Position numbers and translations under genes: made by a program. From PVC group bacterium (GTDB taxonomy: Bacteria > Omnitrophota > Gorgyraeia > B26-G9), in contig JAAEQR010000142.1 in NCBI GenBank assembly GCA_024231215.1, positions 356,593 through 420,592 of the forward strand: a stretch of DNA of 64,000 bases. Reading direction: 5' to 3'. Below the pieces are notes generated by a model. The model worked only from the letters and a program-made list of their open reading frames with translations. It was not told the origin of the DNA and searched no databases. This document shows positions 40,512 through 59,326 of this stretch, piece after piece; the stretch's first letter is position 1, and the number at the start of each line of letters is the position of its first letter.

Positions 40512-40681
40512 AGTAAACCTATTTCTTCCTTATAACGCCACTTATTCTCTTACATTAATCACATATACTATCATCAAATATAATACATGTAAATACTATT
40601 TTTGACATCATGGAAATTTAATCCGAATCTAACTTAGATCCTTATTGGGAAGAAATATGGATTGCAATTATGGCAGGTATT

Positions 40682-40851
40682 TTAACTCAGATTTTGCATT
40701 AGACACAGATAAAGAGTGCTAAGATTTTTGAGATTAAACAGTTACAAAAAACACAGACATACCTACTGGGTACGTCGAGGCTTTTTGTAACTTGTTTAAA
40801 CCAAAAAAATTAGTGCTATTTGCTGTGGGCTAATGCAAATTCTGGGTTTAA
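40682..40851. mobile_element. MITE-like palindromic element, long copy (about 170 bp)
   Basis: Imperfect terminal inverted repeats ttaactcagattttgcattag (40682-40702) and ctaatgcaaattctgggtttaa (40830-40851). Internal agtgcta direct repeats. The right end overlaps the stop codon of the PEP-CTERM gene. Confidence 0.5.
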
Positions 40852-41651
40852 CTGCGTTTGCGCATTGTATAAAAACCAAAAACTCCGCTTAAAAACATAA
40901 GTACAGTGGAAGGTTCTGGAATAACAGTTATCGGATTAACATATGTAGCCGATGATACACCCCAAGCATATTGACTACTCGTCCCTTGAAATTCATACCA
41001 ACCTACAGTTTCCGCTTCATGCCAAGTAGTATATAAACCATACCACCGACCGTCAACGCCACGATCATCATAGCCAAAAACTGGAACAGAATGATCAACG
41101 GAACCATCTCCGTCACTATCTACAGAAAATAACATCGGGCATCCGGCATCAATTTCCGCAACAAAATCATTCCAGGAAAAACTACCAAACCCAACTCTCC
41201 AGGAGACAAAATCATAACCTCTATAGGCAGCATAATCTTCAAACCCATCATCAATTTCACTACCATATGTCCCGCCATACCCACGAGGGTCCACAGAAGT
41301 ATACATAAAATCAGCAATACTTGTATACGGGGGTGTAGGTAAATTAGGATCATCTGGATCTGAATCATATTTTGCATTATGCGCCGGGCTGGATATTTGA
41401 TCCTGAACATTTACTGTCCATCTTATATTTTCCCAGCCATTAGCATCAAATAAATTCGAATACCCTTTCACATCCCAGTATCCAAAAACAGAACCAGCCG
41501 CAGTCGGAGAGCAACCATGATACCAGTCATATGAAGGCACATCATCTATAATATATGCATCCGCGAAAAGCGGTGCAGCTAGACTCAAGACAAATATTAC
41601 AGTTAATAATAAGATCGTTTTTCTGGACATAATATGTATAAATCCTTTCAC
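40848..41651 (-). CDS. PEP-CTERM-anchored secreted protein with peptidase C39-like (papain-fold) domain
   Basis: Signal peptide. Cys motif WYHGCSPTAAG and His motif DHSVPVFGYDD. C-terminal VIPEPSTVLMFLSGVFGFYTMRKRS PEP-CTERM sorting signal. Confidence 0.6.
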   Translation of the reverse strand: MKGFIHIMSRKTILLLTVIFVLSLAAPLFADAYIIDDVPSYDWYHGCSPTAAGSVFGYWDVKGYSNLFDANGWENIRWTVNVQDQISSPAHNAKYDSDPDDPNLPTPPYTSIADFMYTSVDPRGYGGTYGSEIDDGFEDYAAYRGYDFVSWRVGFGSFSWNDFVAEIDAGCPMLFSVDSDGDGSVDHSVPVFGYDDRGVDGRWYGLYTTWHEAETVGWYEFQGTSSQYAWGVSSATYVNPITVIPEPSTVLMFLSGVFGFYTMRKRS

Positions 41652-41794
41652 ATTTTAAAAATATATAATATATAAATATAAAAACCCTTAAAATTATACC
41701 ATATTATTTGATTTTCGCAAGGGCATGAGATAAAAATAGACATTTATCCGTAACAGCTTGATAAATAAAGAGTTGCGGGTTTGGTTTCGTGGAA

Positions 41795-42571
41795 TTACTT
41801 TTTTTTCATTTTTATCATTTGCAACGCTTTTACAGCTGCCTCACGCACATAATCATTTTCATCTTCCGATGCCTTTTTCAAGACCGTTACGGCGCTTTCA
41901 TCAGCTATTTTTCCCAACCCCTGCGCTGCTAAACATCTTTCTCCTTCCCCCATTTTTTTATTCTTCAAGACCTTAATCAATCCGGGAACTGCCCTCGGAT
42001 CCATTATTTCCCCTAATGCCTTTATTACTCGCCAACGCATGTCACTATCCGTATAAGTTAACATAGAAATCAAAGAAGTTGCTGCTGGCTCACCTATTTT
42101 GATAAGTACAACAAAAGTCCTTTCCCTGATCTCCATATCTCCGGTTTTTATAATATCAATCAGAACCGGTACTGCCTTTTCTCCAATATCCGATAAAGCC
42201 TTAGCTGCTTTTGAGCAAACAGTCTCTTCGGAATCATTACACATACTTTGAATTAAAGCCTCAACTGCTTTATCTGCCCGGAGCACACCTAAAGCTTCTG
42301 CAGCTTTCCAGCGTAAATTTGAATAATTGCTTTTCCTCAGAATACGCAAAAGCATTTCAATCCCGTATTGCTCCATATAAATAAGATCCTGGATCGCGCT
42401 TTCACGCACACGCCAGTCTACATCCTTCAATTTCTCAGAGATTTTTTTTAATTGATGTTTTACGTTTAGGCGTTTTTTAATAAAGGCAAGTCCTTTTGTC
42501 CCTAAAATAAGCACGATGATAATATATACTGCGGGTAAAATGTATGGCGATTCTAATATAAATTCTTTCAT
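41795..42571 (-). CDS. HEAT/PBS-lyase-like repeat protein with N-terminal TM anchor
   Basis: Repeated VRE(S/A)A..AL modules (VRESAIQDL, RWKAAEALG, VREAAVKAL). Confidence 0.6.
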   Translation of the reverse strand: MKEFILESPYILPAVYIIIVLILGTKGLAFIKKRLNVKHQLKKISEKLKDVDWRVRESAIQDLIYMEQYGIEMLLRILRKSNYSNLRWKAAEALGVLRADKAVEALIQSMCNDSEETVCSKAAKALSDIGEKAVPVLIDIIKTGDMEIRERTFVVLIKIGEPAATSLISMLTYTDSDMRWRVIKALGEIMDPRAVPGLIKVLKNKKMGEGERCLAAQGLGKIADESAVTVLKKASEDENDYVREAAVKALQMIKMKKK

Positions 42572-42647
42572 CCATATCCTAAGTTAAAATATATAAATAA
42601 ATGATACTCCTATAGATAAAATATGTCAACAACAAACCGGGCCAGCA

Positions 42648-43172
42648 TTAATCTTCAAGCCATAATCCACGCTTTTGCTGTTTAGCTTCATTTTGGAGTT
42701 TCAATAATTCTTGTTCATACTTTATATTTGGCGGGATAATATAAACAGTAGCGTATCCGTCCTCGACCAGGCTGGCATTAAGAAACGTACCATCTTTTAA
42801 GTAGACATAGGCCAGTAATCGATCATATGTATCAAAGCGCTGTTTATCAAACTCCAGTTGTACTCGCTTACCCTCTACTAGTTTCTTTGTATATTGATAA
42901 GACGCATAGCCCATCTTTTGAATCGTTTTAATATCTTTTTTTAATCTACGGCTGTCCCTGTACAGTTTATCTGATTCATGGTATTCCGGAGTATCTATCC
43001 CCAAAAGTCTTACTCTTTGTTTGTTTTCCAGTTTCAAAGTATCACCATCTACAACTCTACGAACTAAAACATTATCATAATCAACCTGTTTTTTTATTAA
43101 TCCAGACGTAAAGAAAAAAATAAAAACACAGGATATAATAAATGTAATTGTAAGAACAACACGTTTTATCAT
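42648..43172 (-). CDS. thermonuclease (SNase-like), membrane-anchored/secreted
   Basis: VVDGDTLKL...RVRLLGIDTPE. Confidence 0.7.
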   Translation of the reverse strand: MIKRVVLTITFIISCVFIFFFTSGLIKKQVDYDNVLVRRVVDGDTLKLENKQRVRLLGIDTPEYHESDKLYRDSRRLKKDIKTIQKMGYASYQYTKKLVEGKRVQLEFDKQRFDTYDRLLAYVYLKDGTFLNASLVEDGYATVYIIPPNIKYEQELLKLQNEAKQQKRGLWLED

Positions 43173-43181
43173 AGCACCTTC

Positions 43182-43820
43182 TTACTCTAAATCCGGAAAC
43201 CTGATCATAATTGTATCCATTATATGTTTAAACAAAAGAGCTTTTGAGTCATATATTGTTTTATTACAGCTAACATGAAACACTGCGACATAAGAATTAT
43301 TCTCAGTAGAGTGAAAAAGATATGTTAACATTTTCCTCCCATTATTAAGATCAAAATCTGTAACTAAAGCCTGCATCCCGTTAAATTCATCCTTGCTCAT
43401 TTCTCCTTTTTTGATAAGTCTGCGACTTGTAGCCATCTGAATCCGGGCTTCCCCGTCTTTTTCCATCTGATCCACATACATTTTTGCCTCTTTAACATTC
43501 ATAACAATAGCTACCAAAGACACTGCCCTTTGAGGAGCAAAAAAACCAGTAACATGAGTTGTATCCCATTCCAGTTTACTAAACTCCTCTATATTCCCGT
43601 TATATCGTAAAAACATCTCTTTACGCTGCTTCTCATAACTGTGATGGAATACTTGTTTTTCCTCATGATTAAATTCCCCCCAGTCAAAGGGAACTTCAAA
43701 GGACAACATTTCGTCGTTGTATTTTTTAAATGTTATCTTTTCCTCAGCAAACACAACCCCGCTCAAACTCAAAACAATAAAACTTATTAAAACACCTACT
43801 TTGATGGTGGTTCTTATCAT
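43182..43820 (-). CDS. hypothetical secreted protein
   Basis: Signal peptide; 212 aa; no recognisable motif. Confidence 0.4.
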   Translation of the reverse strand: MIRTTIKVGVLISFIVLSLSGVVFAEEKITFKKYNDEMLSFEVPFDWGEFNHEEKQVFHHSYEKQRKEMFLRYNGNIEEFSKLEWDTTHVTGFFAPQRAVSLVAIVMNVKEAKMYVDQMEKDGEARIQMATSRRLIKKGEMSKDEFNGMQALVTDFDLNNGRKMLTYLFHSTENNSYVAVFHVSCNKTIYDSKALLFKHIMDTIMIRFPDLE

Positions 43821-43830
43821 AATATCCTCC

Positions 43831-44733
43831 TTATTCTCCCAATTGGCTCATCATCTGCTGTGCTTGCTTACCCATTGGTGATTCCGGAGCAATCTTTATC
43901 ATCTCTTTCAGCTGACCAATCGCCAGGATCTTCTGCTTGGTATTAAAATACACACCTCCCAAATTCCAACGTGCATTAAGATTTTTAGGCGCTAAGCTAA
44001 CTGCTGTCTCAAGCGGTTGTTTAGCATCCTGCATTCTACCAAGCCCAAGATAGTAACTACCAAAATTAAACCATGCCGCAGAATCTTGATCATCAAGTTC
44101 TATTGCTTTTTTAAGATGCACCTCTGCCTCGGAAATTTTGTTTTGCAGTAAAAAAGCAACCCCTAGATTTGTATGGGCCGCAGAAGTTGGTCTTATAGCT
44201 ATAGCCTTTTCTAACGTTTGCACTGCACGATCAAGTTTACCTTGGGCTCCGTAGGCTGACCCCAAACCAGCTAAGATATACACATTTTTCGGGGCAATAG
44301 CAGCAGCCTTCTCAAAATATTCCACAAAGATTTCGATATCACCACCTGCTTTAGGCGAAGCTAACATTCCGTTCAAGATAATAATGTTAGCACTTTTAGG
44401 AAATTTCGAAAGAGTTGTCTCTGCCCAGGAACGAAGCGATTTTAGCGCTGCAGGATCAGAGAAAGGAAAGTCAAATCCTGTAAGCTGTATCTGAGTTCTA
44501 TCTTCCAAAACATCGGCCGCAAGATCAGCCACATAAGCCGCCATCTCATTCTCAGGATGATCAGTACTTACCCTGCGAGATATCTCCAGTGCTTTTTTCC
44601 AATTATTTTGTTCTATTGCCCCAACCAAAGACGCGTTTGTCGTCCCAATAATTTCCTCTTTTTCCTGGGCCTGAACTATTGGACACAAAAATAAACTAAT
44701 AATAAACATTGCACAAATAAATTGACGTAACAT
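43831..44733 (-). CDS. TPR-repeat secreted protein
   Basis: Signal peptide plus multiple TPR units (AYGAQGKLDRAVQTLEKAIAIRP...). Confidence 0.6.
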   Translation of the reverse strand: MLRQFICAMFIISLFLCPIVQAQEKEEIIGTTNASLVGAIEQNNWKKALEISRRVSTDHPENEMAAYVADLAADVLEDRTQIQLTGFDFPFSDPAALKSLRSWAETTLSKFPKSANIIILNGMLASPKAGGDIEIFVEYFEKAAAIAPKNVYILAGLGSAYGAQGKLDRAVQTLEKAIAIRPTSAAHTNLGVAFLLQNKISEAEVHLKKAIELDDQDSAAWFNFGSYYLGLGRMQDAKQPLETAVSLAPKNLNARWNLGGVYFNTKQKILAIGQLKEMIKIAPESPMGKQAQQMMSQLGE

Positions 44734-44760
44734 CGCATTTCCCTCCTATGTATTCTAAAA

Positions 44761-45723
44761 TTATATTACTAATTTTGGTTTATCAGAAAAAAACTTCTCC
44801 ACCAGGAATGAATATTTACCAAGACTTCTCGTTCTTGAAACCGCCTTCAAAATCTTATCGCCGCCAACAAAAGCTTTTGCCCAATATTGCCATATCTCCT
44901 TCAACTTATCTGTTATATGCGCCGGCCCGCTTAATTCCTTTTGATAAGCCGCAAATATCTCATCATGAAAACTGATGAAACGATCAAGTTTTTCCTGCTC
45001 TGTACTGTTAGTCAAATTCTTTATTTGTTCTGGTAAAAATGGATTAGTAATACCTCCTCGACCAATCATCCACTGACTAATCATCGGCAAACGCTTAACC
45101 AGTTTTTTAAACGTTGCGAGCGAATCGATATCTCCGTTATAAACAATTGTATGTTTGGTCAAAGAAACACTTTCCTCAAAAGCAGATATATCTACTTTCC
45201 CTTCATACATCTGCGTTCCCAAACGAGGATGAATAATAATATTTTCCAAAGGAATTGCATCAAGCTTCGGTAGCAGATCAAAAAGCTCTTTATTATTTTC
45301 CTTGCCAAGCCTGACTTTAAGAGATATCTGATTAGGAACAGCCGGGATAACTTCTTCTAAGAACTTAATAATTCTATCGGTAAAAGGAAGCAACCCAGAT
45401 CCCCTTATCTTATTTCTGACCTTTTTATTCGGACATCCGAGATTCCAGTTCACAGTCTTATAACCTAAATCAAACGTAGCTTTAGCCACAGAAATAAAGT
45501 CCTTAGGCGTATTACTCAAAACTTGAGGAATTAATTCAAAACGCGTGTTATTCCTCTTCAGGAAAAGATCCCGTAAAACATTACTCTCACTGCTGTCAAC
45601 ATGACAACTCCGAATAAACGGAGTAACCGCATAATCATATCCCTCAAAAAATTTGGAATATACATTTCGATACACACAGCCGGTCACACCCTGAATCGGG
45701 GCCATATATAAAACTGGTTTCAT
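44761..45723 (-). CDS. tRNA-dihydrouridine synthase
   Basis: YMAPIQGVTGCVYRNV...NLGCPNKKV (Dus family). Confidence 0.75.
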   Translation of the reverse strand: MKPVLYMAPIQGVTGCVYRNVYSKFFEGYDYAVTPFIRSCHVDSSESNVLRDLFLKRNNTRFELIPQVLSNTPKDFISVAKATFDLGYKTVNWNLGCPNKKVRNKIRGSGLLPFTDRIIKFLEEVIPAVPNQISLKVRLGKENNKELFDLLPKLDAIPLENIIIHPRLGTQMYEGKVDISAFEESVSLTKHTIVYNGDIDSLATFKKLVKRLPMISQWMIGRGGITNPFLPEQIKNLTNSTEQEKLDRFISFHDEIFAAYQKELSGPAHITDKLKEIWQYWAKAFVGGDKILKAVSRTRSLGKYSFLVEKFFSDKPKLVI

Positions 45724-45743
45724 AATATCCTTGCAAATATATT

Positions 45744-46061
45744 TTAAGATTTAATCATCGTTAGCATCATTTTGAATTTTTCTATTGCTTTTAAAGCATG
45801 CGGCTTATTTGCCGGCATTATAACCATCTCGCCGGCATTAACGGTCATTGGACTACCGTCAATTGTGATTTCTGCTTGTCCGTCAATGATATTGACCATA
45901 GCATCAAACGGAGCGGTATGTTCGCTTAATCCCTGATCTTTATCAAAGGCAAATACAGTCACGGTTCCCGTTTCTTTTTTTATTAAGGTTTTACTAACCA
46001 CAGCCCCAGCCTGATAATCAATTAATCCCTCTAAATTATTCACATAATTTTCCTGAGACAT
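45744..46061 (-). CDS. cupin-domain protein
   Basis: 105 aa; conserved-barrel motif GEMVIMPANKPHAL. Confidence 0.5.
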   Translation of the reverse strand: MSQENYVNNLEGLIDYQAGAVVSKTLIKKETGTVTVFAFDKDQGLSEHTAPFDAMVNIIDGQAEITIDGSPMTVNAGEMVIMPANKPHALKAIEKFKMMLTMIKS

Positions 46062-46070
46062 ATTTTCTCC

Positions 46071-47987
46071 TTATTTTGCCTTTTCAGAAACAGTTTTTTT
46101 CTGAGTAAAAAGTGAAACCACGATCAAAGTTATAAAACTCAATGGGATCGAAACAATCCCCGGATTACTAAAAGGAATTAGCGCAGTTGACGGATCCAAT
46201 CCATATTTTACATACATGCTAGGACTAATCAAGATCAGTCCTACTGCCGCAATAATACCAACCACAATTGAAGCAACAATCCCCGAAGATGTAGTCTTCT
46301 TCCAGAATAAAACCATTAATATCGCCGGTAGATTTGCCGAAGCAGCTACCGCAAAGGCCCACCCTACCAAAAATGATACATTCATGCCTTTGAAAATAAT
46401 CCCCATAATTATCGCAATTATCCCAACAACAACAGCCGCTACTTTCCCGGCAAACACCTGCTGCTTGTCACTTTTGATCACACCGGCAAACCGATCCAAA
46501 ACATCATGCGCCACAGCACCTGAAGCAGCTACAATCAATCCGCTAACAGTCCCGAGTACAGTAGCAAAGGCAATCGCTGAAATCATCGAGAATAAAAATG
46601 TCCCGAATGTCCGTGCTAAAAGCGGCGCCGACATATTACTGCTGGTCACATTTAATACACCATTTGCCATTGCGCCTAAGCCCATAAATAACGTCAGAAT
46701 ATAGAAAAACCCTATCGCAGCAATTGCTACAATCGTTGATTTTCGAGCACATGCTGGGGTTTTAACCGTATAATAACGAATTAAAATATGAGGTAATGCC
46801 GCTGTTCCAAAAAACAAAGCCAGCATTAAAGAAATAAAATCCAGTTTTTCTAAAGGCGTACCTTCAACTTTAAATTTCACCCCAGGACGCATAATCTTAT
46901 TACCCGGTGTCTCTACAGGATAATACACTGTTACCTGATCCCCATTGTTTTTGAATTTTTCCTTTTTCCATCGTTTAACAACCGTATCTTTATCTGAGAA
47001 ATATGATAAAAATTCAAACACTCCCACCGGCCCGGTCTTAGCCTCTTCTCCGGTTTTACCCTTGATCCTTACCAGGTTTCCCACCTGACGCAATTGATTC
47101 TCTTTAGAAGCCAGCGCACCATTAATCCATGCTTTTCCATCAACAGTTTTAACTTGCGACTGGGATTCCTTTAATACAAGACCCGCATTTTCAGATATTT
47201 CTTTTAACCACCAATTTTTAGACCCATCTTTTAAAAGTTCTACAAATGTATGCCCATGAGCATCAATCTGGCGCAAATACTTAAATGATGCATCTGCCGG
47301 AATCACCTTATCCCCTGCCATCGCCGCATTGATTGTCGCATACTTATAAAAAGGAACTTCACCATTCTGATCCGGAGTAGTAGTTAAGCCGCGATTAAAA
47401 AGCGCAATACAAAGGATTGTAGAAAAAACAATCAACAAAGCTCCTTTTAAAAACTGAACGTAGGTAGTCGAAGCCATCCCAGCCGTAGCAACAATTGTAA
47501 TTACAATCGCACCCACCATAATAACACCAACATAATGAGGCAATCCTAAGAGCGGCGTAACCAAAACGCCTGCACCCACCATCTGAGGTATCAAATAAAA
47601 CAAAGAAACAACCAAGGTACTAACTGCAGCAGCTAAACGAATCCCTTTAGAACCAAATTTTGAATCAAGCGCATCTGCAAAAGTGTACTTTCCCAATCGT
47701 TTCATAGGTTCAGCCACGACAAACAATGCAACAACCCAGCCGGCTAAGTATCCAATCGAATATAGAAACCCGTCATACCCGACTGTAGCGATCATTCCGC
47801 AAATCCCTAAAAAAGATGCCGCTGACAAATAATCACCGGCAAAAGCAATCCCGTTAACCGCCCAATGGATTTCACCACCTGCAGCAAAATACCCTTTAGA
47901 TGACGTGGTTTTTTTTGCAAAATAAAAAGAAACAAATAAAACAATTCCGACAAAAAGCACAAATAAAAAAACAGGAAGCAATGCCAT
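46071..47987 (-). CDS. sodium:solute symporter (ActP-like) with a large soluble insertion
   Basis: SSS-family TM core; 638 aa including an insert of roughly 150 aa (KYATINAAMAG...VKFKVEG) between TM regions. Confidence 0.75.
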   Translation of the reverse strand: MALLPVFLFVLFVGIVLFVSFYFAKKTTSSKGYFAAGGEIHWAVNGIAFAGDYLSAASFLGICGMIATVGYDGFLYSIGYLAGWVVALFVVAEPMKRLGKYTFADALDSKFGSKGIRLAAAVSTLVVSLFYLIPQMVGAGVLVTPLLGLPHYVGVIMVGAIVITIVATAGMASTTYVQFLKGALLIVFSTILCIALFNRGLTTTPDQNGEVPFYKYATINAAMAGDKVIPADASFKYLRQIDAHGHTFVELLKDGSKNWWLKEISENAGLVLKESQSQVKTVDGKAWINGALASKENQLRQVGNLVRIKGKTGEEAKTGPVGVFEFLSYFSDKDTVVKRWKKEKFKNNGDQVTVYYPVETPGNKIMRPGVKFKVEGTPLEKLDFISLMLALFFGTAALPHILIRYYTVKTPACARKSTIVAIAAIGFFYILTLFMGLGAMANGVLNVTSSNMSAPLLARTFGTFLFSMISAIAFATVLGTVSGLIVAASGAVAHDVLDRFAGVIKSDKQQVFAGKVAAVVVGIIAIIMGIIFKGMNVSFLVGWAFAVAASANLPAILMVLFWKKTTSSGIVASIVVGIIAAVGLILISPSMYVKYGLDPSTALIPFSNPGIVSIPLSFITLIVVSLFTQKKTVSEKAK

Positions 47988-48292: not shown

Positions 48293-48399
48293 ATCTTTTT
48301 CCTTTCAAGTTATATTGCTAAAAATAACTCGTCCCACCAGTCTCCAGCCAAACTGGATTCGGTTATTATATCATATTTTGTAATAATACCAAGAATTTA

Positions 48400-49980
48400 T
48401 CAATTAAGGATTACTTCAACCGCTTTTATCCCGTCAAGGGCCGAAGAAACAATTCCACCGGCATATCCAGCCCCTTCTCCAATCGGGAAAAGCCCTTTTA
48501 CATTACTACAATATCTCTCGTCTCTTGATATCCGGACAGGAGAAGACGTTCTTGTCTCCACCCCGGTCAATACCGCATCCGGGAGGGAAAACCCTCTAAG
48601 CTTCTTATCAAAAGAACCTAACCCTTCTTTTAATGTTTCTATTACAAATTCGGGCAGACATTCATTTAAGTCACCAAGAACAATCCCCGGACAATATGAA
48701 GGTTTAACACTCCCCAACACGGTTGATCTTTTTCCTTTTAAAAAATCACCAACCAGCTGTGCCGGAGCCATAAAATCACCGCCTCCTACCTTAAATGCCA
48801 GCCTTTCCAATTTACGCTGAAACTCAATCCCGGCAAGCGGACCATCTGATCCAAAGTCACCGGGTTTAACCCCGACAACAATTGCGCTGTTTGCATTCTC
48901 TTTATCTCTGGTGAATTCGCTCATTCCATTTGTAACAATACCGCCATTTTCCGAGGCTGAAGCCACAACAGTTCCCCCCGGACACACACAGAATGAATAT
49001 GCCGACCGACCGCTTTTTGAATGATGCACAAGTTTATATTCAGCTGGCCACAGCCGCGGATTATTGAAAAATTTTCCGTATTGCGCTTTATTGATCAGAA
49101 TTTGAGGATGTTCTATTCTAACTCCCACAGAAAACGCCTTTGACTGCATAGCCACACCTTTTTTAAATAATAGCTCAAAGGTACCCCTGGCACTCCCGCC
49201 TAAAGCCAAAATAATTATGTCGGATTGAAACGTCTCCCCTGAGGCGCTAACCACTTCGACAACTTTTTCATTCTCGATTTTAAAATCTGTGATTTTTGTA
49301 TTAAATTTTATTTCTCCGCCTAATGAAATAATCTTCTTTCGTATATTTTTCACAACTTCTCGTAGCTTATCCGTACCAATATGCGGTTTTGCGCTATATA
49401 ATATCTCAGGCGGTGCCCCGGCTTCAACAAATACATCAAAAACTTTTTTTGTCCGCTTATCATTTATCAAAGTATACAGTTTTCCGTCAGAAAAAGTACC
49501 TGCCCCGCCTTCCCCAAACTGGATATTAGACTGTTCATTCAGTTTCCCCTCAGAAAAAAAGCTTTTAACATCTACGGCTCTAGCCTCAACATCTTTTCCC
49601 TGTTCTAAAATTATAGGGGAAGCTCCAGCTTCGGCTAAAAGTAAAGCTGAAAAAAGTCCGGCAGGTCCGGCGCCGATAATAATCGGCCGAGCATTCATCT
49701 TCTTCATTTTTTTCGGAAGATTGTAACCATACGGCTCATAATTCAAAATATTCTTGTTATCAACCTCTACCTTTACAGAAACACTCTCATTCACAGTTAC
49801 AGCAATAGAGTAAACAAAACAAATCCTGTTTTTTGAGCGAGCATCAATAGATTTGCGTTTGATCTGAAATTGTTTAATATCATCGATATTAACTTTTATT
49901 TTTCCTGCAATCTCTTTTTTTAAATCATCCTCAGAATGATCAAAAGGCAGTTTTAAATTTTGAATTAAGAACATACACAC
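48400..49980 (-). CDS. FAD-dependent oxidoreductase (COG2509-like)
   Basis: PIIIGAGPAGLFSALLLAEAG after an N-terminal extension of about 95 aa. Confidence 0.65.
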   Translation of the reverse strand: MCMFLIQNLKLPFDHSEDDLKKEIAGKIKVNIDDIKQFQIKRKSIDARSKNRICFVYSIAVTVNESVSVKVEVDNKNILNYEPYGYNLPKKMKKMNARPIIIGAGPAGLFSALLLAEAGASPIILEQGKDVEARAVDVKSFFSEGKLNEQSNIQFGEGGAGTFSDGKLYTLINDKRTKKVFDVFVEAGAPPEILYSAKPHIGTDKLREVVKNIRKKIISLGGEIKFNTKITDFKIENEKVVEVVSASGETFQSDIIILALGGSARGTFELLFKKGVAMQSKAFSVGVRIEHPQILINKAQYGKFFNNPRLWPAEYKLVHHSKSGRSAYSFCVCPGGTVVASASENGGIVTNGMSEFTRDKENANSAIVVGVKPGDFGSDGPLAGIEFQRKLERLAFKVGGGDFMAPAQLVGDFLKGKRSTVLGSVKPSYCPGIVLGDLNECLPEFVIETLKEGLGSFDKKLRGFSLPDAVLTGVETRTSSPVRISRDERYCSNVKGLFPIGEGAGYAGGIVSSALDGIKAVEVILN

Positions 49981-49983
49981 TCC

Positions 49984-51198: not shown

Positions 51199-51232
51199 TT
51201 TAATCTCTCATAACTTTTATTTATATTGTCTA

Positions 51233-53818
51233 TCACCAGTCAATTGGAAAGTAATCCTTCAAAAACTTCCCACACCAGTGCTTACCGCTATTTATTCCAT
51301 CAAAAAAAGGATCACATACCCGCGCTGCCCCGTCAACAATATCCAAAGGAGGCTGAAAATCATGCAAATCCTGTTTAAGCTTAGATAATTGGGCTGGATC
51401 CTCATCAGTCACCCAGCCGGTATCTATTGCATTTATAAAAATACCATACTCGGCAAACTCACTAGCTGAAGTATGGGTCAACATATTTAGAGCTGCTTTT
51501 GCCATGTTCGTATGCGGATGGCGTTCTCCTTTTTTAAAACGCATAAACTTACCTTCCATAGCTGAAACATTTACAATATGTTTTTGCCCGGTATTATCTT
51601 TTTTCATTAAAGGAGCCAGCTTATTGCATAAGACAAACGGTGCAACCGCATTCACTAATTGTATCTCAAGCATTTCCGTAGTCTGAATCTCCCCCAATCT
51701 AAGTCTCCAGCTATTGGTAATCCTTAAATCCACTTGCTGTAAATCAGCATCCAATTCTCCCTTGGGAAATACAGTTTCTGTAGATAACGTATTATCATAA
51801 GCATAAGGAATCTGAGATAATTTAGCAGACTCTCTTAATCCTATCCCAGGCAATTTCCCATGCCAAGTAACAGGGAGAGCCTTTTCTGATGCCAGCTTAG
51901 GAGTAGTTAAAGACATTAGCTTATTATTACAAATTTGATAATTCTGCATAAGCTTCTGAGCATTTTCAGGAAGCTCATGTAAGGCTTTAGTCTCATTGTG
52001 CATTAAATGGGCGTAGAATCCCGGCGGACGACGTACTGTTTGAGCTGCATTATTGATCAAAAGATCCAATCGATGATAAGTCTGTTCGATATGACTGCAA
52101 AATATTTCCACACTAGGTGTATGCCTTAAATCCAAGCCATAGATATGTAATCGATTCCCCCATTCTTTAAAATCATTTTCTTTAGCATACCTTAAGGCCG
52201 AATCCACAGGAAAACGAGTAGTAGCAATAACCGTAGCGCCAGCCCTTAACATCATTAAGGTTGATTGATAGCCGATTTTCAAGCGAGACCCGGTAATCAA
52301 AGCTACCTGTCCTTGTAAATTTGCACTCTGAAAACGTTTTTGATAGTTCAATTCTGCACACCCAGGACACAAAGCATCATAAAAGAAATGCAGCTGGGTA
52401 TACTCTGCTTTACAAATATAACAATTGCGGGGAGACTTTAATCCCCTAGGTGTCTTTTTAGAATCAGTATTGTCTGTGATCTTTTGCGGAGCCGTAAATA
52501 CTGCTGTCTCTCTGGCCGCGCGAATTCCAGTCGCAGCTCTTGCTTTTCGTTCTGCATTAACAATGTTTTGTTTTTTCATTTTACCGATTGCTTTATTCTG
52601 TTGTTTTATTTGATGCCGAGTAGGACGGGACAGCTGTCCTGCAGTTTTCATCAGTTCAATTTGCTGTGCTTTTGGTAATGCAACAAAATCATCATGATTA
52701 TTTACCAGATGATTAAGTATATTAATACAATGATCTATTTCCTTTGATGAATACTGTTTGTCTTGTTCTTTATTATTTTCTTCTAAGACTTGAACATATC
52801 CTTTTTTTAATTCTTCCCAGGTTAGTGCAGAGAGATCAGGCACAGGCAGCGATGTTTTGAAACACTGTTCTATATGCTCAGCTAGTTCTTTTGGCGTAGA
52901 TCCATAGAGATATTCTTTTGAGAACCATTGGGGATAGCTTAATCGTGCTGGAACTATAGGAACAGCTCCCATCTGCACTCCATCCATTATAGCCAATCCT
53001 TGGAATTCATGGATTGAGGTTGAAACTATCACTTCCCCCTTTTTAAGCCACTTCAGATAATCATCTCTTTTCTGTTCCCCCCAGCAAAGTATTTGCGCAG
53101 CAAACGTTTCTTTTATTTCATTAAATATTTCCGGAGAATTTCTAAACTGCAACCCCATCATTATAAGTTTAAAATCTACTCCCTTAGCTTTTAATATTTT
53201 AAGAGCTTCATAGAAATCTTCCGGGTTTTTATCATATTCCCATCTATGATTCCAGATAATACTATTCTTAATTGTTTCTTCAGTCCGCTCTTCTTGATTA
53301 CAAATAGGCACAGCTAAAGTCCTGCTTTTGATCTTAATATCATCCAAAACACTGACTGGACTAAGATCATTAATTCCTTTGAGCAAACTTATTGCTCCGG
53401 AAAAGAAACTATCCCTGTTATACTCACTATTAAACACCACCCTATCCGCACAAAGCGCCGAATACAAGTTCACCATCATCAGATCTGTACTCGGTTGAGT
53501 TGCATTTTCAGATAAAGGATAATCAAACTGATTTTCATGAAAATAGATGATCTTATATACTTTTCCCAGATGAGGAAACAACCCAATAAGTGCCGCTAAA
53601 TCGACCATAGATGTAGCCAAGATAACATCATAACCCCGCCTGAGAACATCCTGATTATCTCCATACCAGCTAATTCCATTCCCCCTAATCCGCCAATAAA
53701 ACTTTCGAGCTGGTAAAGACAAAAAAGTCCAATCATAATCCCCCAATTTATCTATCAAAAGATTACACCAATAGTTATGACTGTGTGAATTATATGCAGA
53801 TAATAATAGTATTTTCAT
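51233..53818 (-). CDS. fusion protein: N-terminal DUF3524/GT4-like glycosyltransferase plus C-terminal SDR oxidoreductase with CxxC...CxxC knuckle
   Basis: GT-B-like N-terminal half. Linker with CYICKAEY...CPGCAE. SDR Rossmann [30 protein letters not shown] and INNAAQ. 861 aa. Confidence 0.55.
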
Positions 53819-53828
53819 AGTATTTGTT

Positions 53829-53887
53829 TTAACCCCGATTTTACCTTAGACGCAGATGAAGAGTGCTAATGCAAATTCTGGGTTTAA
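53829..53887. repeat. MITE-like palindromic element, compact copy (about 59 bp)
   Basis: ttaaccccgattttacctta + gacgcagatgaagagtgcta + atgcaaattctgggtttaa. Aligns at about 37/43 with the left half of the 40.7-kb copy and is identical over the right arm. Ends 11 bp upstream of the GT-SDR ATG. Confidence 0.5.
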
Positions 53888-53952
53888 GTACTAAATATGC
53901 AGGGACAGACTTCTGTGCCTGCCCCTATATATTTAATTATTTTTTTTAATTT

Positions 53953-54405
53953 TTATTTTTCCCAAACTTCTGGGATCATAGTGCCTGGATTGTTAAATTC
54001 TACACGGTAGGGCTCTATAATCATAATTGCATAGCTGGGATCTTCCGGTCCTTTAAAAATAGCTGAAAGCATTTCAAACCAATAATTATTCTTTTCCTGT
54101 TGATCCGTAGTTATTTTTGCTGTTCCCTGGATCTGAATATACGGTTTATTTAAATCTTGAGGATCATTAATCCCAAAAGTTAAATGCACTTCAGGATTTT
54201 TTTCAATCTGTTTAATTTTTCTTGAATCAAGACAAACCGCAGAACGAATATTAAAATCATTATCTGATTGAATCATAATATAACGAGTCCAGGGTTTTCC
54301 ATCCAAAGTTATCGTTGCCATGCTGGATAGTTGCGGTAATTGTAACATTTCAATAACTTTTTGCTTAATCTCTGACATCTCGTTCCTTTCTAGGCCGCGG
54401 GCCAA
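53953..54405 (-). CDS. pyridoxamine-5-prime-phosphate-oxidase-like FMN-binding split-barrel protein
   Basis: 150 aa; general-stress-26-like pattern. Confidence 0.5.
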   Translation of the reverse strand: MARGLERNEMSEIKQKVIEMLQLPQLSSMATITLDGKPWTRYIMIQSDNDFNIRSAVCLDSRKIKQIEKNPEVHLTFGINDPQDLNKPYIQIQGTAKITTDQQEKNNYWFEMLSAIFKGPEDPSYAIMIIEPYRVEFNNPGTMIPEVWEK

Positions 54406-55061
54406 TGGTTACTATGTTTAAATTGCTGATGCGTTGTATCGTCAATATCGTCGTCTGTTCCAGAAACACCATCCGGCCCTGATGACCAAACATGAGGAAT
54501 AAGCATATCATTCCTATTAGGATTTTTATCCAAACGATAATTGTATGGTCTTCCCCAAGGATCTATTATTAAAACTGGTTGCCCCATAAAGTTGGTCTGG
54601 ATCTCTTTTAATCCTTGTTCTTCGGAAGGCCATTCATTATGTTTGTTATAGAACATATCAAGTTCTATTTGGATAACTTTTACCTGAAAACAAGCTTTGT
54701 TATGTCTTTCCAAGCCCCGGAGATAAAAATGATCTTGAAGAAAGAAGAAACAAGGAATAGAAAGTATTACCGCATAAATCGCTAATCCCGCCATCAAATA
54801 CTTGAATTTTCCAGGAAGCTGCAAATCGCGGTATATAACTAAACACTTTATAAATCTAATAAACCCTGCAACTGAAAACCAGCTTACCATGACAGTAAGG
54901 AAAAGACACATCATCAAATGCTCTTCTTGCAAACCATCTGCGGTCATTATACCAAGAACTATCAATATAACAAGAGTAATCATAGGAAACCGCCAAAAAT
55001 TAATAAGCAGCAACCTATTTTTTCCTTCTAAGTCCATACCTCTACCATTAGTATCCATCAC
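54390..55061 (-). CDS. membrane protein with T2SS GspG-like pseudopilin C-terminal domain on a 3-TM anchor
   Basis: DPWGRPYNYRLD...VWSSGPDGVSGTDDDIDD matches the GspG C-terminal signature. No prepilin leader (no G-FTLIE); three TM segments instead. Confidence 0.5.
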   Translation of the reverse strand: MMDTNGRGMDLEGKNRLLLINFWRFPMITLVILIVLGIMTADGLQEEHLMMCLFLTVMVSWFSVAGFIRFIKCLVIYRDLQLPGKFKYLMAGLAIYAVILSIPCFFFLQDHFYLRGLERHNKACFQVKVIQIELDMFYNKHNEWPSEEQGLKEIQTNFMGQPVLIIDPWGRPYNYRLDKNPNRNDMLIPHVWSSGPDGVSGTDDDIDDTTHQQFKHSNHWPAA

Positions 55062-55101
55062 TAGCTCCTAGCTCTCTCCATAGCAAATTGTTAGCATTTT
55101 A

Positions 55102-55863
55102 TTATTTTTCTGCTACTACTAGCATTTCAAAATCATCAGTTGTCAGCTTATCATTTCGGCTGAAAGCACCGAGTTTTGCACCCAATATATCTATAGTTTT
55201 AAAATTCAATGATTTCAATAGCCAGGTTATTTCCGACGGGACATAGAACCTTTCATTGCACTTAAGAGATTTTTTATTTCCAGAGTCATCTATAATCTCT
55301 GTAATGTTATGGTCGCGAAACGTCATCAAATTAAAAGTATTATCTTTATATGCGGCAACACCGTCTTTTTTTTCTGCAGCAAGAAAGTCTTTCACAGAAT
55401 GAAATAACGGGAATAAGCCATTTAGAGTTGTAAATATCAATTTCCCATTGGATTTTAATGCATTGGCAGCATTTTTAAGGATCAGGAAGTTCATCTCGTC
55501 GGTTTCCATCAATGAGAACCCACCCTCGCATAGCATAATTGCTAAATCAAACTCATTTGAAAAATGAGGGTTTCTTGCATCATGCTTTTGGAAGTCAATT
55601 TTAAGTGATTGTGTAGATGCTTTTTCTTTTGCATGCTCCAATTGTGATTCAGATAAATCAATACCAATAACAGAATAGCCCCTTTTAGATAGCTCTATTG
55701 AGTGCCTACCAGTACCACATCCAATATCAAGAATTTTTATTGCTTTATCATGATTGCTCTCTTTTTCTATAAAATCACATTCTCCGATTGTTCCCTTGGT
55801 AAATTCTTCAGCATCGTAAGTTTGAGCGAAATTTTCAAATAATTCTTCATACCATTGTTTCAT
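55102..55863 (-). CDS. class I SAM-dependent methyltransferase
   Basis: ILDIGCGTGRHSIELSKRGYSVIGIDLSE. Confidence 0.7.
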   Translation of the reverse strand: MKQWYEELFENFAQTYDAEEFTKGTIGECDFIEKESNHDKAIKILDIGCGTGRHSIELSKRGYSVIGIDLSESQLEHAKEKASTQSLKIDFQKHDARNPHFSNEFDLAIMLCEGGFSLMETDEMNFLILKNAANALKSNGKLIFTTLNGLFPLFHSVKDFLAAEKKDGVAAYKDNTFNLMTFRDHNITEIIDDSGNKKSLKCNERFYVPSEITWLLKSLNFKTIDILGAKLGAFSRNDKLTTDDFEMLVVAEK

Positions 55864-55981
55864 TTTTTTATCCTTTCCATACTAACATTTGAACTCCACT
55901 GACTGATGAAGCGCCGGTCTTATTTAATTATAAATATTATACTCCTCCCCTCTATCCCTGTCAAAATTATATAAATTTGTT

Positions 55982-56009
55982 TTGAAAAATATACTGTTTG
56001 ACGTATAAT
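55982..56009 (+). promoter_or_regulatory. sigma70-like promoter (TTGAAA, 16-nt spacer, TATAAT), near-leaderless
   Basis: The -10 ends 10 nt before the ATG at 56020, so the predicted 5-prime UTR is only a few nt. Confidence 0.45.
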
Positions 56010-56019
56010 ACTATTAAAA

Positions 56020-57402
56020 ATGACACAGGAAAATCTTAAAACAACCTTCGAACAAGTATTTAGTTTTCGGCTTAACCATAATCAATACAATGAGTTAGAG
56101 CGGATGACACATGAGATATCTCAGCGGGATGGAATCTCTGAAGCCAAACTCATAGATATGCTGAAGTCTGACCAGCGCATTATAGATAGCACCGGCAAGA
56201 ATAAGTTCTCCGCTATAAAACAGCATCTTATCAAACTGCGTTTTCCTCTTACTTGCCAACAGCAAAAAATAAACCCCAAGGATGTGTTTCTCTCTGAACT
56301 TAAAAACCCGCTTAAAGATACTACTGTTTGCACCAAAGAATTTACGCCGGAAAAGATATTTATAGAGAAAAGCGCCCGGGACAGCTACCTGGCAAATAAA
56401 TTTAAAAATTACTTCCCTGACTGCCCTACAGAAGAATTGAATCATACCTGGGAATATATTCAAAAGAATAAATTCTCTCTAAAAGATTTGAAAAAACCTT
56501 TGGTCTTTATTGTAAATGAACATTGGGATTTTATAAAACCCTGCCCCTGCACTAAAAACCATATTGGCTGTAATTACTGGATTTTCAATTTAGGCTTTGG
56601 CTGTCCGTTTGACTGCTCTTACTGCTATCTTCAGCAGTATACTAATTTCCCGGGTACGGTATTGCCGGCAAATTTAGATGATTTTTTCAATAAGTTCGAT
56701 AATTTTTATAAAAAGATCAATCGCCCGATACGTATTGGTACCGGCGAATTTTGCGATTCTCTGGCTTTGGATCATATTACCGGCTATTCCTCTCAATTAA
56801 TAGATTTCTTCCGGGATAAACCGGTATTATTCGAATTAAAGACCAAAAGCGATAATATAGACAATATCCTAAAATGTAAAGGCAGTGAAAATATTATCAT
56901 CTCCTGGTCGCTTAATCCCCAGGAAATTATTAATGATGAAGAATGCTGTGTCGCATCTTTAAAACAGCGACTTAAAGCCGCACAAAAAGTCCGGGATCAG
57001 GAATTTTCTTTGTCATTTCACTTTGACCCGGTCATTCACTCCCCTAACTGGGAAATACTGTATAAAAAGACTATTGATGAATTATACCGCCAACTAAAGC
57101 CTCCGTTTAAGTGGATAAGCATTGGCACCCTGCGCGGCACAAGAAAGCTCAAAAACGCCGCAGAACAGCGCTTTAGCCAAAGTAATATATGGTACGGCGA
57201 GCTTCTCCTGGGTGATGATAAAAAACTGCGTTATCCGAAATTTTTAAGAAAAGATATATATAGTAATATGGTTAAGTGGATCCGAGAGTATGATAAACAT
57301 ACTCCTGTATATCTGTGTATGGAAGATGAAGACTGCTGGGAAGTTATGGATAAGCCTTTGACTTCAGCTAAGCAAGTCGAGTCATATCTGATAGATAAAT
57401 AA
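56020..57402 (+). CDS. radical SAM protein, spore-photoproduct-lyase / DNA-repair-photolyase-like (COG1533)
   Basis: FGCPFDCSYCYLQ (CxxxCxxC followed by Y-L); 460 aa with an N-terminal extension of about 180 aa. Confidence 0.6.
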   Translation: MTQENLKTTFEQVFSFRLNHNQYNELERMTHEISQRDGISEAKLIDMLKSDQRIIDSTGKNKFSAIKQHLIKLRFPLTCQQQKINPKDVFLSELKNPLKDTTVCTKEFTPEKIFIEKSARDSYLANKFKNYFPDCPTEELNHTWEYIQKNKFSLKDLKKPLVFIVNEHWDFIKPCPCTKNHIGCNYWIFNLGFGCPFDCSYCYLQQYTNFPGTVLPANLDDFFNKFDNFYKKINRPIRIGTGEFCDSLALDHITGYSSQLIDFFRDKPVLFELKTKSDNIDNILKCKGSENIIISWSLNPQEIINDEECCVASLKQRLKAAQKVRDQEFSLSFHFDPVIHSPNWEILYKKTIDELYRQLKPPFKWISIGTLRGTRKLKNAAEQRFSQSNIWYGELLLGDDKKLRYPKFLRKDIYSNMVKWIREYDKHTPVYLCMEDEDCWEVMDKPLTSAKQVESYLIDK

Positions 57403-57473
57403 TCTATCAGGAAAATATTTGACATCTTTTTATTTTTGTGTTAGATTATCTTAATGCTATTTTTTATACTATT

Positions 57474-57549
57474 GCCGGGGTAGCTCAGGTGGTAGAGCGA
57501 GGGACTGAAAATCCCTGCGTCGGCGGTCCGACTCCGTCCCCCGGCACCA
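57474..57549 (+). tRNA. tRNA-Phe (anticodon GAA)
   Basis: Cloverleaf by hand: acceptor GCCGGGG/CCCCGGC; D-arm GCUC-AGGUGGUA-GAGC; anticodon arm AGGGA-CUGAAAA-UCCCU; CCA encoded. The T-loop reads UCCGACU (C at position 55). Confidence 0.8.
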
Positions 57550-57554
57550 TAAAA

Positions 57555-57587
57555 CTCTCTTATCTTAATTGATAAGGGAGTTTTTTT
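57555..57587 (+). terminator. Rho-independent terminator after tRNA-Phe
   Basis: 10-bp stem ctctcttatc/gataagggag, loop ttaatt, then TTTTTTT. Confidence 0.6.
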
Positions 57588-57621
57588 ATAGGTAAATATT
57601 TGGTCTTATTAACCAATAGGT

Positions 57622-58485
57622 CTAAATATTCCCCAAATAAACATATTTTAACTTTTTCTTGGCTATATACTCGGCACGTTTTAATGTTTCCAGGGACGTA
57701 GGCGGGATATTAAGCTCAAAACACGGAAAATAGCGGGATAAATGTAAAGGAGTATCTGCGCCGGTGTTTTCAAAAATCCAGTTAGTAAGCCTTTCAAAAT
57801 GCTTGTCTGAATCGTTTACCGTAGGAATAACCAAATTGGTGATTTCAATATGACAGCTCTGTTTTGCCCTTTTAATTGTATTAAATACCGGTTCTATAAT
57901 CGCCTCACACAATGTTTGATAAAATTCATTATCCATACTCTTTAAATCAATATTCATCGCTCCGATATACGGCAGGAGCTCTTCTAAAGGCTCCGGATTT
58001 ACATACCCGTTGGTAACCAGTACATTTTCAATACCTTTGGACTTGGCCAGCTTTGCGGATTCTAAAACAAATTCATACCAGATAAACGGCTCATTATACG
58101 TATAAGCAATCCCGAAAGAATTCATCCTCTCTGCCTCATTAACCAACTGCGCCGGGGTGATATCCTGCAAATATGTGTCCGGGTTTTGGGAAAGATGCCA
58201 ATTTTGACAAAAAGCACAGCGAAAATTACAGCCGCGCGTACCTAAGGAAAGAATAACTTGATTGGAATGGAAATGATATAAAGGTTTTTTTTCGATCGGG
58301 TCTAAGGAAATACCGCTTGTCTTACCGTAAATCAGAGAATACAGCTTACCTTTTATATTACTGCGTGCTTTACAAAACCCTGTCTTGCCTTTGGCTATAA
58401 CACAGTTTTTAGGGCAAAGCACACAACGTACAGTCTGTCTTTTTAGCTTTTCATAATATAGGGCCTCGCGATACTCGCTCTCCAT
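57622..58485 (-). CDS. radical SAM enzyme, AmmeMemoRadiSam-system-like (AmrS-like)
   Basis: N-terminal Cys cluster RCVLCPKNCVIAKGKTGFCKAR preceding GCNFRCAFCQNW and DPIEKKPLYHF; 287 aa. Confidence 0.5.
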   Translation of the reverse strand: MESEYREALYYEKLKRQTVRCVLCPKNCVIAKGKTGFCKARSNIKGKLYSLIYGKTSGISLDPIEKKPLYHFHSNQVILSLGTRGCNFRCAFCQNWHLSQNPDTYLQDITPAQLVNEAERMNSFGIAYTYNEPFIWYEFVLESAKLAKSKGIENVLVTNGYVNPEPLEELLPYIGAMNIDLKSMDNEFYQTLCEAIIEPVFNTIKRAKQSCHIEITNLVIPTVNDSDKHFERLTNWIFENTGADTPLHLSRYFPCFELNIPPTSLETLKRAEYIAKKKLKYVYLGNI

Positions 58486-58500
58486 GATCCCCTATTTCTA

Positions 58501-59229
58501 TTATATACCGCGCAAAAAACAATTTTTTACATGCTCACCGGCAAGCTTGGACATTATCTTCAGCTCCCCAATGGAATATGGCTTTATTTGACTTAGATCT
58601 TTATCCAACGTTTCTTTTGCTTCAAACTGCTGCAAAACATAACGCTTAGCTCCGCCGATAGATTCGGCTATATTCAAAATATCTTCCCGATTAATAAAAG
58701 AAGGCACTACCGTAGTTCTAAATTCATAATCTATTTTGCTGGCAAGTAAAATAGCAATGCTCTCACGAATACTCATAATATCTACAGCCGTACCAACTGC
58801 CTTTTCATAACGCGATTGTTCCAGCGGCGCTTTTATATCCATGGCTATATAATCTGCCAGATTATAATCTATAAGATCCCGGATTACGTCGGGATTGCTT
58901 CCATTTGTATCTACTTTTACTAACAATTCGTTTTTTTTCAACTCCGTTAAAAGCGGGCACAAATTTTTATTCAACGTGGGTTCTCCCCCTCCGATGACAA
59001 CTGCCTCTATCCAACCTTTTTTTTCGCTGAAAAACTTCACAATATGGTCAAAAGGAACGTCCGGAAGCTCTTGAGGCTCTGTAACTAAACTGCTTGAATG
59101 GCAGAAAGGACAACGGAAATTACATCCGGGAAGATAAATCACGCTGGAAAGTTTGCCTTCCCAGTCGATAAATGTAGACGGATTAAATCCTTTTATCGCA
59201 TATTCCATAATTACTAATACTCCCTTCAA
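58501..59229 (-). CDS. nrdG: anaerobic ribonucleoside-triphosphate reductase activating protein
   Basis: IDWEGKLSSVIYLPGCNFRCPFCHS...GGEPT. Confidence 0.7.
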   Translation of the reverse strand: MKGVLVIMEYAIKGFNPSTFIDWEGKLSSVIYLPGCNFRCPFCHSSSLVTEPQELPDVPFDHIVKFFSEKKGWIEAVVIGGGEPTLNKNLCPLLTELKKNELLVKVDTNGSNPDVIRDLIDYNLADYIAMDIKAPLEQSRYEKAVGTAVDIMSIRESIAILLASKIDYEFRTTVVPSFINREDILNIAESIGGAKRYVLQQFEAKETLDKDLSQIKPYSIGELKIMSKLAGEHVKNCFLRGI

Positions 59230-59268
59230 TTAAGATAGTTCCTATCTTAACACAAAAACAAGAAAAAA

Positions 59269-59326
59269 TAAACCCAGAAATTGTATTAGATACATATGAA
59301 AAATACTAATACAATTTCTGGGTTAA
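59269..59326. repeat. MITE-like palindromic element, minimal copy; hairpin with T-run on minus strand
   Basis: Perfect 19-20 bp inverted repeat taaacccagaaattgtattag / ctaatacaatttctgggtt around a 16-nt loop. On the minus strand it is followed by tttattttttctt. Lies between the grx-like gene and nrdG. Confidence 0.5.

Follow-up and report, generated by a model that had tools for sequence, protein, structure and literature searches.

The stretch of DNA investigated here, 64,000 nt from the assembly of a PVC group bacterium (Omnitrophota, Gorgyraeia; GCA_024231215.1, contig JAAEQR010000142.1, positions 356,593 to 420,592 of the forward strand; in the following called the window), holds four short palindromic elements, W0, W1, W2 and W3. 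With high confidence, we consider these to be non-autonomous MITEs (miniature inverted-repeat transposable elements) whose origin is a clade of the IS1380 family of insertion sequences (IS). The assignment is carried by direct observations: the common anatomy of the elements, the duplications that flank them, the identity of their ends with those of IS copies bearing a transposase, and their dispersal in multiple copies. They show the defining features of bacterial MITEs, and the parent element matches the curated IS1380 model. A sequence-only reading of this DNA had described three MITE-like copies. All three were found within 1 nt of the positions given for them, and a fourth one was detected at 35154-35230, outside the range which that reading had covered.

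When the right-hand 22-mer CTAATGCAAATTCTGGGTTTAA was used as a query and up to three mismatches were allowed, seven arm matches were found in the window, two of them in W0, whereas 0.00 were expected from 100 dinucleotide-preserving shuffles. A profile of the arms (nhmmer) detected exactly eight of them, that is, four elements, which are spaced 5-13 kb apart among housekeeping genes. W0 is oriented opposite to W1, W2 and W3, according to both BLAST and nhmmer (E-values of 3.8e-08 and 4.8e-06 on the minus strand versus 0.19 and 0.35 on the plus strand). This refutes the idea that all four copies share a single orientation, antisense to the genes. One weak extra arm match, CCCGAATTTGTAATAGAAA at 48636-48654 on the minus strand (nhmmer E 0.07), is located inside the open reading frame (ORF) 48400-49980; this solo arm is probably a chance match.

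The terminal inverted repeat (IR) comprises 17 bp of the form CC...GG, with the consensus CCCAGATTTTGCATTAG for the left repeat (IRL) and CTAATGCAAATTCTGGG for the right repeat (IRR). The two consistently differ at position 7 (GATTTTG versus the complement of CAAATTC), and the same difference is present in the full-length IS. When all elements were oriented and lined up, the interior between the arms varied from 16 to more than 250 bp; in the window copies it measures 16-127 bp, is non-coding and self-complementary. The 5 nt outside the arms read TTTAA at either end or TTAAA at either end, and in 12 of 19 elements they form a perfect direct repeat of 5 bp. Both flanks are of the TTWAA type (W being A or T) in 16 elements, with 13 direct and 3 inverted pairs among them. 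TTTAA is the reverse complement of TTAAA, so an extension of the inverted repeat would read TTTAA...TTAAA. Since the flanks are found in direct orientation, they lie outside the inverted repeat and are the target-site duplication of TTWAA. W0, W1 and W2 carry this duplication without a mismatch, and in W3 four of five positions match. The check for target-site duplications which the sequence-only reading had proposed was thus positive. The arms within its 22-nt terminus are real, while the outer 5 nt of that terminus belong to the direct duplication; similarly, what it had described as ends falling at TTAA/TA is the 5-bp TTTAA/TTAAA duplication.

Evidence on the origin of these ends comes from elements that carry a transposase gene. 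In two loci from metagenome-assembled genomes (MAGs) of Spartobacteria, L004 and L012, a long ORF precedes the right arm and has its TAA stop codon inside this arm. The ORF bounded by the inverted repeats in L004 and in a further locus, L016, matches the NCBIfam model NF033539, 'IS1380 family transposase', with 225.3 bits (cutoff 180) and the Pfam domain DDE_Tnp_1_4 (PF13701) with 130.6 bits (cutoff 34.7); DDE_Tnp_1 was matched as well. L016, which was recovered among the contigs fetched for the identical 441-aa protein P0001, contains a complete IS of 1,389 bp (796-2184) with the IRL CCCAGATTTTGCGATAG, the IRR CTAATGCAAATTCTGGG and TTTAA on both sides. Its DDE transposase of 441 aa is encoded at 846-2171 and has its stop codon inside the IRR. 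Compared with the ends in the window, L016 and L004 are identical at 17 of 17 positions in the IRR and at 15 of 17 in the IRL, with the same asymmetry and the same duplication. L027 likewise is a full-length IS1380-family element with the 17-bp ends and the 5-bp duplication. The parent IS with a transposase which the sequence-only reading had suggested looking for therefore exists, in other MAGs, and the MITE-like nature proposed there is borne out by ends and duplications of the same kind flanking L016, L004/L012 and L027.

An identical right end of this IS occurs at different sites in L004, L012, L031, L032, L036 and L037; as it abuts different flanks in the last four, the IS is multi-copy. 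Homologues of the transposase number more than 5,000 at E <1e-20, typically 434-442 aa long and located on short contigs, as expected for repeats. Distant members of 50-70% identity, which were fetched by protein and hence are unbiased by the DNA end pattern, have the related inverted repeats CCCrrATwwTGCrwTAG and are mostly flanked by TTTAA or TTAAA. The length of the parent clade ranges from 1.39 to 1.64 kb, with the stop codon inside the IRR. Within the 64 kb of the window itself, tblastn with the IS1380-clade transposase found no transposase, in agreement with the sequence-only reading. Lacking this gene, the window copies are non-autonomous derivatives of the IS1380 clade, thus MITEs and not IS copies. 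In the metagenome loci L048, L049 and L051 1889-2221, a fragment of an rve-type (IS3-like) integrase directly follows an IS1380-clade element, which suggests IS-into-IS insertions.

Of the four copies, W1 (40681-40851, plus strand) is the full-length form. Its 161-bp core, 40686-40846, is enclosed by TTTAA at 40681-40685 and 40847-40851, and its arms are the IRL at 40686-40702 (CTCAGATTTTGCATTAG) and the IRR at 40830-40846 (CTAATGCAAATTCTGGG). W2 (53828-53887, plus strand) has a 50-bp core at 53833-53882 between TTTAA at 53828-53832 and 53883-53887; its IRL is degenerate (CCCCGATTTTACCTTAG), its IRR perfect. W2 corresponds to W1 after the loss of 111 bp from the 161-bp core, and the deletion joins two GCTAA repeats; this loss had been put at about 80 bp in the sequence-only reading. 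The 50-bp core of W3 (59268-59327, plus strand) lies at 59273-59322 between ATAAA (59268-59272) and TTAAA (59323-59327), with the same 17+16+17 architecture as W2. The arms of W3, CCCAGAAATTGTATTAG and CTAATACAATTTCTGGG, are perfectly complementary and, together with two flank bases, form a 19-bp stem (100%) around a 16-nt loop, just as the perfect inverted repeat had been described before. W0 (35154-35230, minus strand) has a 67-bp core at 35159-35225 and retains about 16 nt of each subterminal region. Its duplication at 35154-35158 and 35226-35230 reads TTAAA on the plus strand, equivalent to TTTAA on the element's own strand, and its arms, both in reverse complement, are the IRR at 35159-35175 and the IRL at 35209-35225. 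W0 as well as W2 and W3 are internal-deletion derivatives of the 161-bp form. An analogous internal deletion distinguishes L010 from L005 in another MAG.

A scan of species-representative genomes with CTAATRCAAWTTCTGGGTTWAA yielded 15 loci. According to the labels of the MAGs, these belong to Omnitrophota (five loci in four MAGs), Spartobacteria/Chthoniobacterales, Deltaproteobacteria, Patescibacteria, Campylobacteraceae and Chitinophagaceae. Two further hits, L001 and L007, were discounted as unrelated: each has only one arm, located in what appears to be coding sequence, and a stretch of 34 nt is shared between the two. Taken together, related IS copies and MITEs are present in MAGs labelled Omnitrophota, Verrucomicrobiota, Patescibacteria, Deltaproteobacteria and Campylobacterota. 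At least two copies per MAG were also seen elsewhere (L003/L008, L005/L010, L013). In viral contigs, the end motif gave no match. The 161-bp family consists of W1, L002, L003, L011 and L034, and furthermore of L008, which has an extra insertion; W1 shares 77-86% identity with L002, L003, L008 and L011, in unrelated flanks. Other families have nothing but the inverted repeats in common with it: L006 (220 bp), L009 (281 bp), L015 (180 bp), L026/L029 (256 bp), L033 (160 bp), L035 (185 bp) and L013 (63 and 85 bp). The existence of several MITE families that agree in their inverted repeats alone indicates that this IS clade spawns MITEs readily. In L009, what looked like a nested element of 1.9 kb proved to be separate copies on either side of an lgt-like gene. 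Two observations were made beside such copies. In L014, from an Omnitrophota MAG, a 31-bp mini-palindrome at 3779-3815 on the minus strand, in which a truncated IRL abuts an IRR between the flanks ATAAA and TTTAA, is located directly 5' of an RNase P RNA-like sequence (GAGGAAAGTCCGAGCTCCACAGGGCAG). In the MITE-carrying Deltaproteobacteria MAG, a second repeat family of about 60-210 bp and 89-95% identity is found close to the MITE (L005 2047-2254 and 5431-5637; L010 6952-7102).

These observations can be put together in the following way. A DDE transposase of the IS1380 family, either encoded at another place in the genome or since lost from it, would have mobilised the elements in trans, binding to their inverted repeats and integrating them by a 5-bp staggered cut at TTTAA or TTAAA. 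The 161-bp form represents the full-length MITE, from which W0, W2 and W3 arose by internal deletions that kept the ends. TTWAA is frequent in AT-rich intergenic DNA, in stop codons (TAA), in the T-runs of terminators and in ribosome-binding regions, and selection acts against insertions into coding sequences, leaving the surviving copies at gene boundaries. We ascribe the position of the elements at gene boundaries to this combination of target and selection and not to regulation. Side effects of the hairpins on neighbouring transcripts are conceivable, most plausibly for W3 with its U-run before nrdG.

The neighbourhoods of the four copies illustrate this position. W0 lies between the accA terminator (35236-35251) and a YjeF_N gene, 14 nt from the likely ATG at 35139, which has a GGAG upstream. 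The PEP-CTERM gene 40848-41651 ends within the right duplication of W1, which provides its TAA stop (40848-40850, minus strand), an overlap noticed already in the sequence-only reading, and the start of the SBP gene is 169 nt away from W1. Read in the direction of the adjacent glycosyltransferase/SDR fusion gene, W2 is preceded by a terminator-like hairpin (53900-53927) and followed after 9 nt by the ATG (53818) of this gene. W3 is found between a thioredoxin-like gene (59376-59675) and nrdG (58501-59208), whose annotated start at 59208 is 59 nt away. These start-codon distances differ from what the sequence-only reading had stated, which had put W2 at 11 bp from its ATG. Promoter scans around W0, W1 and W2 revealed nothing above shuffle expectation. 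The orientation relative to the neighbouring genes is mixed, 3:1 in the window, and at other loci elements occur on either side of genes. Two kinds of change at gene ends were seen. The TAA of the target is reused as a stop codon in W1 (40847-40851) and in L003 (4967-4971). In L002 (6534-6555) and L005 (5210-5231) the gene reads through the duplication and the inverted repeat to the TAG within the repeat itself, which replaces the last residues of the protein.

Some further features of the window are mentioned here for completeness. Its genes are nearly all located on the minus strand, and over positions 1-64000 the GC skew is negative throughout (cumulative -6.1); both are in keeping with a single replichore arm whose genes point in the direction of replication. 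The sole RNA gene called is a tRNA-Phe (GAA) at 57474-57549 on the plus strand, opposite to almost all protein genes. A direct repeat of about 55 bp with 83% identity is present at 23529-23581 and 24326-24378. Of its two copies, one is part of the 3' end of ORF 24322-24639 on the minus strand and the other one is intergenic, below ORF 23625-24191; the repeat may be the remnant of a partial duplication.

Several points weigh against the derivation of the four elements from the IS1380 clade as selfish MITEs. The progenitor of the interior of the 161-bp MITE was not found among the known IS copies, which match only about 15 nt beyond the inverted repeats. At the left end, beyond the IRL, GCATGGATGAAGAG in the MITE compares with GCATGGGATAACAGAG in the IS, and the right end of the MITE retains a remnant of the last transposase codons, F-x-x-x-stop. 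Furthermore, the IS copies bearing a transposase come from outside the source genome, of which only 64 kb are visible, and mis-binning may distort the phylum labels of MAG contigs. An empty site was not obtained from the closest relative, L039 (GCA_043826565.1; 20.7 kb without arms, 75% NrdG identity), in which synteny is kept and the intergenic DNA is non-alignable. The NrdG of the window is 100% identical to MCP4650194.1 from a 'PVC group bacterium' MAG, and the matches after this one are from Omnitrophota with at most 75% identity. Finally, compensatory upkeep of the rod-like interior is not predicted for a purely decaying selfish element.

This last point deserves a closer look. W1 folds into one single rod with -71.4 kcal/mol (z -11.5), compared with -63.7 for the opposite strand. 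The agtgcta motifs of W1, taken for direct repeats in the sequence-only reading, are the two sides of one stem and pair through G-U wobbles. In an alignment of five copies, compensatory double changes were counted at 13 of 66 pairs, compared with 1-3 in slid controls and with 0 of 500 shuffles; as the count comes from five related sequences, it is suggestive and not a proof that the pairing in the 161-bp family is being maintained. A transposition requirement, hairpin-templated repair or a role at the RNA level could each have kept such pairing. An internal loop (RCRYA / CGAG) around the apical hairpin is conserved in this family. At the gathering score of Rfam, nothing but a tRNA was found in the window and nothing in six related loci, and a permissive Rfam scan of W1 gave only generic long-hairpin matches (miRNA precursors) below threshold.

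Combining these observations, one may go beyond plain MITEs. In this extended form, the rod of the 161-bp family would be under selection, either as a folded (cruciform or single-stranded) substrate of transposition or in portable RNA modules that were recruited, including W3 as the functional replacement of a native terminator; in addition, its strict TTWAA target and CCC...GGG ends would make the clade the closest prokaryotic mimic of the target choice of piggyBac. We regard this proposal as rather improbable. Of modest interest in any case are the structure-preserving evolution of the rod, the piggyBac-like target and ends, and the possible co-option of W3.

The possible co-option of W3 can be judged from its surroundings. 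On the gene-sense (minus) strand W3 forms a hairpin of -27.4 kcal/mol (z -7.5), followed by UUUAUUUUUUCUUGUUUUUG with the U-run UUUAUUUUUU; the corresponding T-rich run is located at 59245-59267 on the minus strand, directly 3' of the hairpin. A consensus terminator scanner did not call W3, the loop limit of this program being 8 nt versus the 16-nt loop of W3. In L039, with the gene order nrdR-nrdD-thioredoxin-like-nrdG-radical SAM, a native GC-rich hairpin of -30.2 kcal/mol with the U-run AUUUUUUUGGCUUUUUUUG is found at the junction of the thioredoxin-like gene and nrdG (9900-9960). The perfect stem of W3 has come about by joint changes in its two arms. Judged by these predicted structures, W3 with its U-run may plausibly act as an attenuator or terminator between the thioredoxin-like gene and nrdG, as the sequence-only reading had suggested; the native hairpin of L039 lends this some indirect support. 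The loop of the native hairpin in L039 contains TTTAA, the target sequence of the MITEs.

One could also take all these elements chiefly for functional cis-acting RNA hairpins, such as terminators, attenuators, stabilisers of 5' untranslated regions (UTRs) or RNase III sites, that is, for domesticated MITEs in which the transposon ends reflect the origin alone. The kept pairing in 13 of 66 pairs of the rod would agree with this view, as would the perfect 19-bp stem of W3 with its U-run at the place of a native hairpin with a U-run in L039. Furthermore, the strand running from IRL to IRR folds better in 13 of 19 elements, with one U-G pair fixed in all five aligned copies; the apex of W1 together with a T-run, right behind a stop codon, was classed as terminator-like on the gene-sense strand; and W0 and W2, at 9-14 nt from start codons, must be part or the start of the respective 5' UTRs. 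However, the orientation relative to genes is mixed, in the window and elsewhere. Interiors range in length from 16 to more than 250 bp and only the ends recognised by a transposase are invariant. W2 has a weak stem (-15.5 kcal/mol, z -2.5), transposase genes are bounded by the same ends, and compensatory changes in a palindrome may also arise from hairpin-templated repair or from the requirements of transposition. A chiefly functional role at the RNA level appears unlikely to us.

Long imperfect hairpins with G-U wobbles and one conserved T:T mismatch (GATTTTG versus CAAATTC), at first seemingly strand-selective, also recall single-strand DNA recombination substrates of the REP/RAYT, IS200/IS605, integron attC or Xer/dif-like types, and AAC...GTT-like ends faintly resemble the R boxes of attC. 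But the apparent mismatch is the difference between IRL and IRR that is present in full-length IS, too. The associated protein is an IS1380-family DDE transposase and not a Y1/HUH enzyme or an integrase, and 5-bp target duplications are not made by HUH-type or attC recombination; REP/RAYT and IS200/IS605 elements are ruled out by this duplication together with the DDE enzyme, and a GTAG-type REP head is lacking. With regard to attC sites, the ends misfit the R-box consensus RYYYAAC...GTTRRRY, the copies lie 5-13 kb apart between housekeeping genes and not among cassettes, and no integrase was found among the ten proteins scanned. Altogether, this possibility is highly improbable. Least of all do we believe in the conserved core as an operator of a transcription factor that co-regulates the adjacent genes, an alternative named in the sequence-only reading, which the palindromic sequence and three copies upstream of same-strand genes might suggest. 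The distribution of the 17-bp arms excludes it: they stand beside unrelated genes in MAGs of several phyla, so that the motif is not confined to the three genes, and at the ends of transposase genes. Moreover, the distance between the arms ranges from 16 to more than 250 bp, the arms are flanked by direct 5-bp duplications, the neighbours YjeF_N, SBP, GT-SDR and nrdG have no common function, and the position of W1 is at a stop codon, with the next start 169 nt away.

Thus, the four elements are best understood as MITEs of the IS1380 clade. For annotation this means that conspicuous hairpins in the genome of an uncultivated member of the PVC/Omnitrophota, a lineage that has received little study, are mobile DNA and should not be taken for regulatory sites or RNA genes. 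Their copies flag the places where insertions remodelled 5' UTRs, stop codons and terminators. MITEs are known already as selfish DNA, and no existing idea is overturned here. What emerges is a clade of compact IS1380 elements that gives rise to MITEs, has conserved 17-bp ends and a TTWAA target, occurs in MAGs of several phyla and apparently has not been described before. This clade is of some interest, as piggyBac has its prokaryotic counterpart in IS1380, a family whose mechanism has yet to be worked out.

Bacterial MITEs such as the Correia elements of Neisseria, RUP and ERIC/IRU are non-coding, intergenic elements of about 50-300 bp with terminal inverted repeats and a short AT duplication. 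Elements of the Correia/RUP/ERIC type can form long co-transcribed hairpins that terminate transcription or become processed, and they occur in nested deletion size classes. The elements described here are different from these in that their parent is an IS1380 element and not IS630-like or unknown, their target is TTWAA with a 5-bp duplication and not TA, and their host belongs to the Omnitrophota/PVC. Literature on IS1380-derived MITEs or on MITEs of Omnitrophota was not found, with ISfinder not covered by this search, nor was there a relevant match to the exact sequences of the elements.

With the IS1380 family, represented by ISEcp1 and ISPme1, they share inverted repeats of the form 5'-CC...GG-3', about 14-17 bp long in that family and beginning and ending here with CCCAG...CTGGG, and a short AT-rich target duplication of 5 bp. 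ISEcp1 likewise duplicates 5 bp, within the 4-5 bp usual for the family. Its IRL, CCTAGATTCTACGTCAG (from an E. coli plasmid), is identical to the IRL here at 12 of 17 positions; its IRR reads ACGTGGAATTTAGG, and the transposases of ISEcp1 and P0001 have about 27% identity. Unlike IS1380 insertion sequences, the elements in the window are without a transposase and measure only 50-161 bp. Moreover, the target of the parent clade is the defined sequence TTWAA and not merely AT-rich, as is typical of IS1380. ISEcp1 and ISPme1 are known for an outward promoter and for one-ended mobilization as a 'transposition unit' (PMC9330008); unlike for these two, we have no evidence here of either behaviour.

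The target preference leads to a last comparison. The eukaryotic transposon piggyBac inserts at TTAA. The clade described here, inserting at TTTAA or TTAAA and having CCC...GGG ends, is reminiscent of it. CC..GG termini and short duplications, of 4-5 bp in the IS1380 family, are regarded as common hallmarks of IS1380 and piggyBac (PMC10045372), and piggyBac as the eukaryotic counterpart of IS1380 (PMC10045372, PMC5718144). The differences from piggyBac are the duplication of 5 instead of 4 bp, the prokaryotic host and transposases which would be only distantly related.

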